A DNA stretch of 25,377 nt. It comes from Candidatus Velthaea sp. Lineage in GTDB: Bacteria; Vulcanimicrobiota; Vulcanimicrobiia; Vulcanimicrobiales; Vulcanimicrobiaceae. Both the position numbers and the translations under genes were made by a program. Location of the stretch: contig JBEKHC010000078.1 in assembly GCA_050012475.1 (NCBI GenBank), positions 1 through 25,377 of the forward strand, given 5' to 3'. How positions within the stretch are numbered: the stretch's first letter is position 1; every line of letters starts with the position of its first letter. Of the stretch, positions 1,096 through 18,463 are shown in pieces. The notes beneath the pieces are model-generated. The model was not told where the DNA came from and did no database searches. It was given only the letters and a program-made list of their open reading frames with translations.

Positions 1096-1424
1096 CGCTA
1101 GCGGGGACGCGCTATTGCGTAAGCTTGCGGTGCTGCTGTGCGCGTCGGCGACGGAGCCGGGCGATATCGTTGCGCCCAATGAAGGCGATGAGTTTTGCGT
1201 GGTGTTGGTGGATGCGGAGAAGTCGCGTGCCATCGAGCGTGCGGAACGATTGCGGGCGAGCATCGCGGAAAGGAACTTCAGCGGATTGCACGCGCCTATT
1301 GCGGGAAGAGAAGACGTGCAAGAAGACCGGCCGCAACGGCGTTTCCTTTTTCGGCGTCGACGCATCACTCGTTCGCGGCGACGGCGCTACCGATGAGCGT
1401 TCCGCTGATCGACGACGCGAGTAA
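1096..1424 (+). pseudogene. GGDEF 3' fragment, copy 1 (most decayed of the long copies)
   Basis: ASGDALLRKLAVLLCASATEPGDIVAPNEGDEFCVVLVDAEKSRAIERAERLR; GGDEF has become EGDEF. Relative to copy 2 it lacks 95 bp (equivalent to 5210-5304). It ends [37 protein letters not shown]. Confidence 0.9.
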
Positions 1425-1497
1425 AGAATACGCCCGACCAACGAACGACAGCAGGGTTCATTTCCAATTATACCTGTCGGAGACGCTGCGCGGTCAT
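1425..1497 (+). repeat. Conserved tail downstream of the GGDEF fragment
   Basis: CCGACCAACGAA...AGACGCTGCGCGGTCAT matches 5420-5490. Confidence 0.7.
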
Positions 1498-1668
1498 CCC
1501 CAAGGCGCTGATGCGGCCGTTGCGATTCCTTGATCGCGTTGCCGATGACTACGTCGGCTAGGCGGGTTATTGGAGCGCGTCTGTCGAGTCTTAGCACACT
1601 CGGCGCCGCCTTCGCCGCGCACCGTTGGTGGTCGACGGGATGCGGCCGAATTTGGAGAATCAGCGTCG

Positions 1669-2062
1669 ATGCCTATCGATGAAGTGCTGGCTGCGCGTGC
1701 GCAGCGAATTGACCGACCGAACCGAAATCACCGAACGACGGATGTTCGGCGGCTTGGCGTTTTTAGCGAACGGCCAGATTCTCGTTGCCGTCAGCCGTAC
1801 GGGCTCGTTGCTCGTACGCTTGGAATCGGCGCAAGAGCGTGACGCGCTACTGGTTCAGCACCACGTCAGTCCGATGATCATGGGCGCACGCGTCGTCGAG
1901 CGCTTCGTTTACGTTGATCCAGCAGCGCTCGCATCGACCGCACAACTCCGCGAATGGATCGCGCGAGGCTGGACGGCTCTGACTGCATCTGCTGCCAAAC
2001 GGTCGCCGGCGCGCAAGCGGAAGGCTCCTCGAAGCCGGCCATTTACGGCCAGCCGTCGATGA
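1669..2062 (+). pseudogene. TfoX/Sxy N-terminal domain family protein with an early frameshift
   Basis: GGAG RBS, then MPIDEVLAAR in one frame, continuing VRSELTDRTEITERRMFGGLAFLANG...LLVRL...LREWIARG in another. Consistent with loss of 2 bp in the GCGCG run near 1693-1697. Confidence 0.8.
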
Positions 2063-2200
2063 AGTACGCCGCCTGTCCGGTGGTAAACGCCGACTTGCCC
2101 TCGACCTGCAAGGTGATCACTTCGCTGGCCTTCCGAGGTTCGCCCGGTCGCCCAAACGGAGCGTTGGACGATCGCCGTTCGTCCGTCGGTGTCATCGATG
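2043..2200 (-). pseudogene. Possible degenerate SDR C-terminal remnant
   Basis: PFGRPGEP...SAFTTGQAAYFIDGWP resembles the SDR C-terminal pattern PxGRxGxP...SxFxTGQxxxIDGG. No upstream SDR motifs are recognisable. Confidence 0.35.
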
Positions 2201-2440
2201 AGGCGTTGCGCCGATAGTGGCATGTCGCTGCGCTTGCAAATCGGCTGCGGACGCACTGGCGCTGAAGTATCGGGCTTTTACGGACGCTGCAAAGTTGAGG
2301 CGTTCGCGATAATTTCGCGGCAAGCCACCACGTACGCAAGGGCCAGATCTTCCGCATTGCCACCAAACCGCTGCCCATCCAAATCGCTGAGCGATGGCCA
2401 TAAAAAATGTATCAACGTAATCAAGCAGACGACTTAGCTC

Positions 2441-2484
2441 GTGGTTCCTCTGCGGCGATGGCGAAGTGACGCAGCCCGGTCGAT
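2441..2484 (+). repeat. Orphan copy of the GGDEF-downstream tail
   Basis: GTGGTTCCTCTGCGGCGATGGCGAAGTGACGCAGCCCGGTCGAT aligns with GTTCGTTCCACTGCACCGATGACGGCGAAGAGACGCAGCGCGGTCAT (5444-5490). Confidence 0.6.
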
Positions 2485-15590: not shown

Positions 15591-15911
15591 CTAACAGCAG
15601 CATTGCCGCGTGAACGCGTCGTCGAGCAGCAAGGCATGCATGTCAAACTTCTTACCGATATAGTCGTCAAACCACCCAATCGGGGGACCCGCGTCGGGAA
15701 CGCGCGGCTCGTTCCCGCCGATGATGAGCTGATCCATCGGCGGAAGGCACAGTCTATCGACAAGCAAGGCGTGCACTTTCGCGAGGCATCGGTTAGCAGA
15801 GGAATCGCAATGGTCGTGAAGTCCGACGATATGCCCTTGAGTCATGAAGAACTCGACATCGACCGTCATGCCGTCACGGGCGATGCCGATGTCGACGGGC
15901 CGATTATCCAT
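15591..15911 (-). CDS. Hypothetical protein (uncertain; an overlapping + strand ORF 15378-15962 is the alternative)
   Basis: Protein-like composition (MDNRPVDIGIARDGMTVDVEFF...); no recognised motif. Confidence 0.25.
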   Translation of the reverse strand: MDNRPVDIGIARDGMTVDVEFFMTQGHIVGLHDHCDSSANRCLAKVHALLVDRLCLPPMDQLIIGGNEPRVPDAGPPIGWFDDYIGKKFDMHALLLDDAFTRQCCC

Positions 15912-17266
15912 GAGATGATCCGTGTTGCGCGCGCCGAAGAGAGGATCAACGGTAGCTGTTGACGGCGCTTTTTGGGTGCGTAACGCTGCAGGCGGCGGCA
16001 AAGTGAGCCGAACGCCGGCGGCCTGCAGACGTAGGGAATCGTGCCGACGATTGCGGCGCGGCGGTGAGTCGATCTGATCTTGCGCACAGCAGAGCTGCTC
16101 GCGAAGACGGCGTCCGTCCGGATTTTAGCGAGTGCGGTTCGTTAGGCCATTGAGCGTCTCGTAGACGGCGCTGAACGGGTGTCCGCTAAGTGCTTATCCG
16201 AGATCGTTTAGGCAAGTAGCCTAACGATTGTACGAACTACGTATTCTGCGATTCGCCAGCATCGCTTCCGTTCAGCAACGGGATTCTGCGAACGCCAACG
16301 GTCATTCTGTTCAACACGAGCTTCCGACGAAGGGGCCGAGCAGGGTCGTTTATCGTACGCAGATCCAAGGGCTCTCCTTCATCGGCGTACCGCCATTGCA
16401 TCATGACACACAGGTGGGCCGGTTGCTCACACGATGTCCAGGGGTAGCGCCGTGTGGATTGGTCTTCGGTGCGCATTCTAGAACGCCGCAGAACGCCGAA
16501 GATTGACGCCGAAGAGAAGATCGGGCGTCAATGAGGGGAATCGGCGCAATAAATAGGGCGCGCCGATGCCCATTTGCTCGCGGAGAAAGAAAAGAGCCGC
16601 CTCAACCCTGCCGTCGAGCATATGCTCATGCAAAACTAGCGAGGACCACTACCTCGTCGGCAGCAGTCTCCGGATGCTTGAATCTCGTCGCACGCTGCGT
16701 ACCAAACATTTCCGCACCTTGAGGGCAAGCTGATTCGCGCAGTCCTTTTTCCCGTGGACGGTCTGCTTTTGGGACGCTCTCCGCACCCGGTCCTTGCGGT
16801 CGCGAAAACCCGGCCCGAGCGATGAGGCGCCAAGAAGGCCCACTTCGCACCTTTGGTCTTAGCTACGGTCAGTCGGCCGATTGGCGCTCGAGATCTCGCA
16901 GCCGAGAAGTGCAGCGAAGCTTTGCGGGCCGAGCTAGCGGAGCACGGCCGAAACGGAAGGCCGAGCGCGAGCTGAACGACGACCTCGCGCACGATGTTCG
17001 CCGCAAGCTGCGCGAGCAAGGCGCCCGCGATATCGCCCGCGAGGCCATTCTCGCAATCGTCACAGGGCTCTGAGTAACGTTTGGCCGGAGCCAAAAGGCG
17101 AAGCAAAGCGTAAACATGAGTTCGAGGACGCGCTCGTGACTGCCGCATGCTATCGGCATACGCTGGCGCTTCAGGCTGCTCAAGCCGCGATCGCGCGAAA
17201 CTGGACCGCAACGCCGGTCGGGCTGGCGGCGATTCGCGAACATCACTACTCGGAGGACAACCGACG

Positions 17267-17425
17267 ATGCGGGCTGCCATGACTGATGACGACGACTATG
17301 AAGACGACGATGAAGACGACGACGCGCAAGCCGACATGCTCGCCGAACTGGAAGAACTCGCCGAACTCGGTCGGCCGACGCCGGTGATTCGAGAGCACCA
17401 CTATGCAGAAAGAGGCCGACGATGA
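17267..17425 (+). CDS. Small, highly acidic hypothetical protein (52 aa)
   Basis: GGAGG at 17252-17256; MRAAMTDDDDYEDDDEDDDAQADMLAELEELAELGRP...; the stop overlaps the next ATG (ATGA at 17422-17425). Confidence 0.5.
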   Translation: MRAAMTDDDDYEDDDEDDDAQADMLAELEELAELGRPTPVIREHHYAERGRR

Positions 17426-18319
17426 GCTATGGAACTGAAGAGCCGGAAGCAACGAGTTGCCGTAGACGATCGAGGCCGGGTGACACGCTTTCCCGACCCT
17501 GCGTTCGGCGCGTGGTGGGGGCAATCGCCGTTCCCTTAGCCCGCGCCCTTGGCTCCATCGACTCCGCCGTCAATCTTTCGATTTTTGTACGCCGACCTCT
17601 CAGCTACTGCGACTGGGTCTGACTCCTCGCGACCGTGCATCATCGACCACGACGTGCGCTTTTCGATGCGGACCAACGCCGTTTTTGGTCGATGCGAGGC
17701 CGCCCAGTTCCCGATGCAAGCTGTTCCTTCGTAAAATGGTCTCGGCCACGGCGGAGCTGCCCTGTCTCGCATAGCGACGTGGCGCGTGTTTGCCTTTGCT
17801 TTTGTACACCAGCTCGGCCCCCGCGATGATAATTCTAACGCGGCTCAATCCCATTCCCCAGAGGATCTCTGTCAACGCTTCAGCCCGTACATCGCCGCAC
17901 GACTGCAAGACTCGATACCGACCGGCCCGCTACGGCCTTTGTCGTCCCGGTCTCTCACCTGTAAGTTCACATCAGGTTTTCTGGCGTACAATAAGTTCCG
18001 CTTCTTGAGGGCACCCCCATATCGCTACGGCGAACGAGAAGGCGCGAGAGCACAACTAGACGTTCACCCTTGTGGCGCAACCCGAACTTACATTTCTCTC
18101 AACATAAGCGCGCTATGGTTGTTGGAAGCAATCCCATCTTTTCGACGCGTGTCAAGTTGACCGAGGTCTGATGAAGGTTCGTCGCCGGGCACGAAAGCCT
18201 GAAGAGCGAGAATTTCGCGCTCAATGGCATGGTCGCGTTATCGTGACGCAATCCCATGACTGATGCGTAGTCGAATGACTGGATCGCGTTCCAATTGGTG
18301 AATGCAGTCGTTTTGCACA

Positions 18320-18412
18320 CGCAACGGCGTTTCGTTCTTCGGCATCGACGCAGCACTCGTTCGCGGCGACGGCGTTGCCGAAGAACGTTCTGCAGATCGA
18401 CGACGCGAGTGA
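18320..18412 (+). pseudogene. GGDEF gene tail, copy 4 (last 30 codons)
   Basis: [33 protein letters not shown], near-identical to the ends of copies 1 and 2. Confidence 0.9.
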
Positions 18413-18463
18413 CAAATGGCGGCGCCGACTAACGAACCTCAGCGAGAGGTCGTTCCGCTGTAC
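18413..18463 (+). repeat. Conserved tail downstream of the GGDEF fragment
   Basis: GGCGCCGACTAACGAACCTCAGCGAGAGGTCGTTCCGCTGTAC vs GGCGCCGACCAACGAAACTGCAGCGAAAGTTCGTTCCACTGCAC (5416-5459). Confidence 0.75.

Follow-up and report, generated by a model that had tools for sequence, protein, structure and literature searches.

A probable decayed array of gene-restoring integrative elements targeting a diguanylate cyclase gene in Candidatus Velthaea

Introduction

How a bacterial genome comes to carry the same gene end several times over, without the beginning of the gene and with unrelated genes in between, is the question raised by a stretch of 25,377 nucleotides from Candidatus Velthaea sp. This stretch (hereafter the window) is the entire contig C78 of the source genome G000, an assembly of 5.36 Mb in 204 contigs (93.8% complete, 5.3% contamination), and the sequencing runs that contain it come from peat and soil metagenomes. 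The repeated gene end belongs to a diguanylate cyclase (DGC), a c-di-GMP enzyme with a GGDEF domain; its 3' half is referred to below as the half, and the 24-bp non-coding stretch that abuts the half as the arm. A preliminary description of the window had proposed that site-specific elements integrate inside the GGDEF domain just after the DxD motif, each bringing a replacement half of about 450 bp. We conclude, with a probability of roughly 0.75, that the window holds part of a decayed tandem-accretion array, built up by gene-restoring elements that integrate site-specifically into the DGC gene between crp and priA.

Copies of the half were located by BLASTN and alignment, with copy 2 of the window as the reference for identities, and cargo names rest on Pfam matches. 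G-numbers denote genomes of relatives, C-numbers contigs of G000 and L-numbers fetched loci. The mosaic-site tests were made on related genomes and their p values are uncorrected for multiple testing. An ortholog-level DGC match was present in 61 of 76 chosen genomes, a count that includes the unpublished G177; the unpublished G297, G208 and G220 contribute to tallies only. Most genomes of the family sample are incomplete metagenome-assembled genomes, and diverged arms would escape detection.

Results

The four gene ends that the preliminary description had listed lie where it placed them, all on the forward strand and at 80-88% identity to copy 2; every copy in the window lacks a 5' half, and the terminus ERSADRRRE ascribed to three of them is found in copies 1, 2 and 4. 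A fifth, internal remnant joins them (40 of 50 positions matching, corrected chance 7e-7). Genome-wide, G000 holds 14 remnants of the half, distributed over C78 (5), C40 (3), C66 (3) and small contigs (3), co-oriented within every contig, and 13 of the 14 have a frameshift, are shortened or break off where their contig stops. The arm occurs eight times in the 5.36 Mb (twice each on C78 and C66, once each on C40, C165, C183 and C190), every time abutting the same codon, D-T-D|R-F-K, and nowhere else in G000 within 6 mismatches, the next-best match having 7. The fixed junction just after the DxD codons thus stands in 8 of 8 cases, with a ninth at the same base in G176, and so do the common arm resembling an attachment (att) site, the replacement half of about 450 bp and the shared orientation.

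The arm behaves as a site and not as a reading frame. Mean pairwise identity among the eight junctions is 0.27-0.34 left of position -25, rises to 0.83-0.96 from -25 to -11, stays at 0.79 up to the junction and amounts to 0.67-0.74 over the first 20 coding bases; a 9-bp block at positions -23 to -15 is invariant in all eight. When counted in the frame of the gene, arm variation is lowest at third codon positions (14 of 224, versus 44 and 25 at the other two), whereas the gene half shows the reverse pattern (30 of 90 at third positions, versus 13 and 9), which argues that the arm is constrained as DNA and not as coding sequence. In three junctions (C165, the second on C66, and C190) only 25-47 nt of the half remain, which reduces the site to roughly 50-70 bp. 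None of five flanks tested contains a significant hairpin (fold z-scores 0.3-1.4). The arm was also likened to the E. coli dif site, a likeness that fails on spacing.

Two other readings of the arm can be weighed here. In one, the headless copies would be small expressed genes that start at an in-frame TTG within the arm and are kept as truncated GGDEF proteins; such a TTG does stand at a distance of five codons from the junction, in 6 of 8 arms of G000 as well as in that of G176; copy 2 is fully open, and the ratio of non-synonymous to synonymous change (dN/dS) is low. We regard this as highly improbable, given that arm variation is biased towards non-synonymous positions, that 13 of the 14 remnants are damaged or cut as stated above, and that the fragment would lack the D-x-D codons, which bind metal in GGDEF domains. 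In the other, the arm would mark where a DDE or HUH transposon ends, with the gene half inside it or next to it, as might be suggested by the TGT that starts the arm in 6 of 8 copies, by the sharp stop of conservation at -25, and by the TnsB/Mu-type elements of this genome, of which a 76-bp remnant lies in the window. Yet a different motif stands upstream of the TnsB genes, the arm is never found without the gene half and has no inverted partner in the genome, and about 100 nt beyond the arm are common to copies 2 and 3, all of which make a transposon end very unlikely.

The array does not appear to be an artefact of assembly. Logan contigs drawn from four studies leave none of the 30 bins of window positions 1-20000 uncovered, and among the pieces listed they independently bridge the arm-gene junction of copy 2, the left edge of copy 1, and copy 4 in two of four runs each, with 0-6 differences; a JGI contig reproduces the junction of copy 3 over 1151 of 1161 nt. 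Since these contigs bridge the junctions, the misassembly that had been named beforehand as a refuting outcome is not seen, although one of the bridging assemblies may come from the very sample that yielded the window. At copy 3 the JGI contig keeps N-Y-G where the window has N-D-R, and the frameshift is missing from one strain contig. A joint of positions 1262 and 14351 in one Logan run, with a side of 22 nt and inserted letters, was not counted.

A second line of evidence concerns where the halves come from. Copies 1, 2 and 3, the piece on C183, the half of the parent gene in G000 and that of G184 (same genus) differ pairwise by a synonymous proportion (pS) of 0.39-0.60, or 0.80 for one pair of 31 codons, and dN/dS is 0.10-0.27 in the long comparisons; tails of 29 codons give noisier values of 0.16-0.72. 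Selection should not be expected on a headless GGDEF piece without its D-x-D codons. This combination of divergence like that between species and low dN/dS indicates that the copies evolved mostly as working DGC ends in other lineages, and not as local pseudogene duplicates. In a tree of 3' halves, copies 1-3 group with the half of G184 and not with the resident half (97/81, a bootstrap that is not fully settled).

The resident genes, for their part, look mosaic in their site patterns. When G000 and G184 are compared against G234, informative sites are balanced upstream (217:212) and skewed in the 3' half (76:38, p 0.002), and the excess of sites shared by G000 and G184 is confined to the 3' half (103:114 versus 76:38, p 0.001). 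In G176, which belongs to another genus, the resident 3' half is G149-like and codons 188-246 are not (14:17 versus 55:25, p 0.03, and 10:14 versus 60:21, p 0.006, with two outgroups), the corresponding test against priA giving p 0.06 and 0.005. The displaced copy of G176 is not G149-like; its nearest relatives are G178, G355 and G268, the group that stands beside the G176 5' half in the tree.

These data bear directly on the possibility that the resident 3' end was duplicated locally in tandem and then decayed neutrally, or that strain variants were misassembled. The fragmented state of the genome, with its contamination, leaves some room for this; dN/dS far below 1, pS near the level between species, the grouping with G184 and the independent assemblies that bridge the junctions speak against it. 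Local duplication or misassembly is thus already largely refuted, and we give it only a slight chance.

What became of the target gene can be followed through its neighbours. The preliminary description had expected one intact parent gene upstream of the window. A single G000 gene with the 5' half does exist, downstream of crp; it lies on another contig, C127, where the loss of 50 nt ahead of the GGDEF domain (about 657-662 of C127; locus L009) shifts the frame and makes it a pseudogene in this assembly. Relatives carry an intact DGC ortholog of 397 codons in the order crp-DGC-priA. C127 ends 90 nt past the parent stop and overlaps none of the array contigs, and priA of G000 lies on C12. The contig ends of C78 and C178, both forward, overlap exactly by 21 unique nt, and those of C178 forward and C40 reverse by 122 nt, so that eight remnants point the same way across about 95 kb. 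At its far end, C40 has 680 nt in common with the end of C12 (95%) within an RHS repeat, in an orientation that leads towards priA, which is suggestive only. That an intact parent gene lies upstream, and that the array of G000 is attached to it, may be inferred only from this orientation.

Relatives supply the empty site and the occupied one. Among 39 downstream loci fetched from relatives, 31 hold priA, and in 20 of these the DGC end lies within about 210 nt of priA, in agreement with the prediction that empty sites would be found; in 10 others the gap varies between 0.5 and 6 kb without any remnant. The occupied site is that of G176, where crp is followed by an intact DGC gene, a gene of the XRE family, an arm related to that of G000, another 3' half that starts from the same base, one more gene and priA; an ungapped comparison of the two arms gives 14 matches in 26 positions (p 0.003). 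A relative with different cargo had likewise been predicted, and G176, with the same junction, is one. G184 keeps a co-oriented remnant of 52-66 nt 6.3 kb behind its intact DGC gene. An array attached to a restored target is accordingly seen in G176, with one remnant in G184.

The full junction occurs in 2 of the 348 family genomes, with no further one in that sample or in the genome-contig collection, and the notion of a widespread hotspot does not hold. The arm pattern is absent from 300 other genomes of the class, from viral contigs and, at 3 mismatches, from five relatives, and is present on one metagenome contig of the same strain group. Relatives of copy 2 were found in no viral contigs, plasmids or phages. 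At least two genera truly possess the system, which in this sample is nevertheless rare. Several candidate matches were set aside: the junction pattern has six matches among all genome contigs, of which one is true (G176) and five lack a GGDEF context, an unrelated one among viral contigs, and three with one mismatch in family genomes that proved unrelated on inspection; four weak extra nhmmer matches were uvrB or glmM (three) or lay on the opposite strand (the fourth, in G099). A partial match in G356 comes as close as 14 nt to the end of its contig.

Discussion

In the mechanism that we propose, a free element, which would be circular, carries an attachment site that consists of the arm and junction seen in the assembly together with the whole DGC 3' half of an earlier host. 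Recombination at, or just to the right of, D-T-D|R-F-K would join the 5' half of the host to the incoming half, so that the gene stays open, while the previous half would be displaced to the far end of the element, where it follows the arm; G176 has exactly such a layout. Repeated arrivals would stack cargo blocks in a presumed order, each closed by an arm and a half as is observed. The displaced halves, no longer translated, would decay by the frameshifts, deletions and insertion sequences that the remnants display, and the recombinase genes would have been lost or supplied in trans. As a side effect, the catalytic half of a c-di-GMP enzyme would be exchanged between species.

Several points weigh against this interpretation, beginning here with those on the enzyme that would perform such a reaction and continuing further below with those on sites and links. 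The preliminary description had expected an integrase or recombinase near a copy, and circles joined at the junction. Neither a recombinase nor a remnant of one was found near any junction, and no circle or excision joint was found in Logan contigs, which drop rare forms. The serine-recombinase family PF07508 has no match in G000 at its completeness of 93.8%, nor in G176, G149, G184, G233 or G234. A panel of 48 open reading frames from recombinase loci, some of which are not recombinases, recovered only a 32-aa piece of a resolvase 4.7 kb from the C40 junction, and nothing in the 39 downstream loci of relatives. PF07508 matches occur in 115 of 353 genomes of the order, none of the 150 matches listed being near a DGC ortholog of known position. 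The 14 tyrosine-recombinase and 5 resolvase matches of G000 all fall on contigs other than those with junctions. Because in streptococcal arrays, according to PMC7563491, the most decayed elements lie farthest from the target, an intact element would be expected right behind the parent gene, where this assembly has a gap.

Some further recombinases and transposases deserve mention. In G234 (L041:3062-4315) and G233 (L042:7109-8248), a tyrosine recombinase conserved at 47-49% identity is encoded 25-30 kb downstream of the DGC gene, and in G000 it is on another contig (C9:21768-22781); it is at most a possible candidate for action in trans. A strong 329-aa match to PF00589 (E about 1e-36) is present in G176 and G149 and absent from the four genomes of the genus, G000, G184, G233 and G234; if it corresponds to XerC/D, then XerC/D may be missing or diverged in this genus. 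An intact-looking transposase of the IS110 family on C183 (L012:604-1842), 1.7 kb upstream of the arm junction, was treated as a passenger.

The site itself is awkward for either class of integrase. For a serine integrase, one would look for symmetry, and a scan for dyads at the junction found nothing significant and no prominent centre, while neither the right side nor the target contains a copy of the 9-bp block, the best match, whatever the offset, being 4-5 of 9. For a tyrosine integrase, a 7-bp overlap at +1 to +7 is hard to reconcile with five forms among the eight junctions, none of them that of the parent, although the true crossover may lie further right. After W-N-D the parent reads L-Y, as at the C183 junction, and most arm-bearing copies read N-Y. 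In the trio G000, G184 and G234 the excess similarity starts near codon 301 and not at junction codon 247. The link from C40 to C12 is a 95% repeat and no exact overlap, and C127, C66, C165, C183 and C190 are unlinked.

A rival reading assumes that one old site-specific or illegitimate event fused arm and half, and that later cargo arrived by homologous recombination or transformation anchored on the 450-bp halves and their flanks, without a dedicated recombinase. The recombinase not found, the mosaic signal that starts away from the junction in one trio and the variable gap to priA in 10 relatives without a remnant all agree with this. It would nevertheless leave unexplained the purifying selection between headless copies, the arm that is better conserved than the adjoining coding DNA even where 25-47 nt of half survive, and a junction at the identical base, next to a diverged arm, in another genus; moreover, the copies are about 80% identical, and such sequences are poor substrates for RecA. 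On balance we consider recombination on the halves unlikely, and the accretion of gene-restoring elements remains the reading that we prefer.

Known systems offer partial counterparts. The closest are the cis-mobilizable elements (CIMEs) and the tandem accretion of ICEs (integrative and conjugative elements) and IMEs (integrative and mobilizable elements) in streptococci (PMC5704250, PMC7563491), which share with the present array integrase-less cargo blocks of a few kb, retained att sites and a single target gene. Those arrays use a gene end as the target, have repeats of 8-60 bp and two or three members (Streptococcus salivarius), and include an ICE or IME; in the present array the site lies in mid-gene, the repeat reaches 453 bp, 14 remnants exist and no helper element was found. 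In tyrosine-integrase islands, in icd or tRNA genes for instance, the replacement sequence within attP keeps the target functional, with an identity block of up to about 250 bp (PMC10111431); displaced fragments mark the island ends and tandem arrays form, as in our case (PMC10111431, PMC4383910), whereas the replacement here is 453 bp long and neither an integrase nor a conserved 7-bp overlap was found. Tandems of three or more are given for 4 cases among the 3919 islands of Islander (PMC4383910), and islands in coding sequences for 43.4% (PMC12424338).

The arm itself, in its size and outer 9-bp block, fits an attP half-site of a serine integrase, judging by the motif and its register. Large serine integrases use a half-site of 25 bp with a 9-bp motif at positions 16-24 (PMC3783163), and the present arm has 24 bp with its invariant block in a register within 1 bp of that. 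In these systems the target is normally disrupted and the motif recurs in the other half-sites, shifted by 5 bp in attB (PMC3783163, PMC10083194); here the gene is apparently restored, the motif does not recur and PF07508 was not found in the assembly. Gene-restoring replacement is a tyrosine-integrase habit.

Integron cassette arrays resemble the locus in their rows of unrelated cargo between co-oriented repeated sites and in the blocks having no recombinase of their own. Unlike them, the five flanks give no hairpin signal of the attC type, no integrase or IntI was found on the array contigs, the cargo is multi-gene with its own orientation, and the sites are halves of a host gene. A more daring interpretation, which we think unlikely, holds that the blocks are cassettes that can still move, mobilised in trans by a recombinase of the serine type with a donor site that carries half a signalling enzyme, in what would be an integron-like capture platform resting on a DGC gene. 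If it were true, the gene would regain a catalytic half of foreign origin at every insertion, new cargo would be parked behind it and c-di-GMP output would be reshuffled.

Taken as an array of gene-restoring elements, the locus works like CIME accretion combined with gene-restoring islands, the mechanism class being a known one; in the genomes sampled the system is rare. What is unusual is the target, the middle of a domain of a c-di-GMP enzyme, together with the replacement length of 453 bp and the depth of the array. No description of a DGC gene as an integration target was found in the literature (titles and starts of abstracts); the TIGER target list or database (Mageeney et al. 2020) may hold one. 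Gene-restoring integration would thereby reach into the interior of a gene for a c-di-GMP synthase, and its replacement would be roughly double the greatest length given in PMC10111431. Purifying selection between dead copies and mosaic resident genes would also be unusually direct sequence evidence of halves moving between species. Should the recombinase be found, integrase and target would form a new pair, from a soil phylum about which little is known, and one could test whether enzymes of the serine type are able to restore their targets.

Features of the window and cargo

The features are collected in Table 1. That unrelated cargo lies between the copies had been proposed from the outset and is confirmed, the names of the genes holding by Pfam.

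Table 1. Copies of the DGC 3' half, associated sites and cargo in the window
Feature	Position	Strand	Remarks
Copy 1, decayed DGC 3' half	1096-1424	+	Arm and first 10 codons gone; begins at codon 11; internal deletion of ~95 nt; C-terminus intact
Cargo block 1	1625-4627	mixed	TfoX_N gene 1625-2062 (+); putative lipoprotein 2767-3654 (+); DUF2867 3791-4627 (-)
Upstream flank common to copies 2 and 3	4824-4929	+	75% identity over ~130 nt including arm; non-coding; no significant fold
Arm of copy 2	4930-4953	+	24 bp; conserved; non-coding; P-like half-site abutting Arg codon
Copy 2, complete open DGC 3' half	4954-5409	+	151 codons plus stop; GGDEF motif present; D-T-D codons and all upstream absent
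Downstream flank	5410-5499	+	Common to copies 1 and 4 and a C40 remnant; not found after parent genes
Cargo block 2	6072-13421		Serine dehydratase (SDH), Ala racemase C fragment, RidA-type, amino-acid permease, threonine-dehydratase-like PALP/ACT, alanine dehydrogenase (AlaDH)
Upstream flank of copy 3, common to copy 2	14011-14116	+	
Arm of copy 3	14117-14140	+	24 bp; conserved
Copy 3, DGC 3' half	14141-14462	+	1-nt frameshift near 14373; cut off at IS66 remnant
IS66 transposase C-terminal remnant	14463-14700	+	Pfam
Cargo block 3	14701-18319		Mostly open reading frames without assignment; TnsB/Mu-type transposase gene remnant of 76 bp, 16592-16666; small acidic open reading frame 17279-17425
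Copy 4, tail of DGC 3' half	18320-18415	+	Shared flank continues to 18463
Copy 5, internal remnant of 50 nt	19670-19719	+	Same orientation; absent from the preliminary description

Within the cargo, the putative lipoprotein of block 1 has no Pfam match, and the alanine racemase gene of block 2 (7464-8286, reverse strand) is apparently split into overlapping frames, its Pfam match being to the C-terminal domain only. The small acidic open reading frame of block 3 encodes 48 aa and has no family match; it has six homologs, all uncharacterised and 48-67 aa long, and C3 contains a related stretch. None of 28 unknown open reading frames matched PHROGs. Apart from the remnant in the window, TnsB/Mu-type transposase genes or pieces of them lie on C129, C30, C4, C19, C48 and C36 of G000, with a common upstream motif on C129, C30 and C19; the gene on C129 runs into a C-terminal motif of tyrosine recombinases, which is also found on C184.

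Regulators of the HTH-NB-ARC-TPR type recur in the variable region behind the DGC gene in both G000 and G184 (window 20946-23714, forward strand; L037:5452-7998; L111). Cargo between junctions elsewhere in G000, on C66 and C190 (L015, L010 and L013), includes an apparent aldehyde oxidoreductase with a molybdopterin/tungstate cluster (moaA, ThiF, cysteine desulfurase, PBP), a TonB-dependent receptor and another GGDEF gene.

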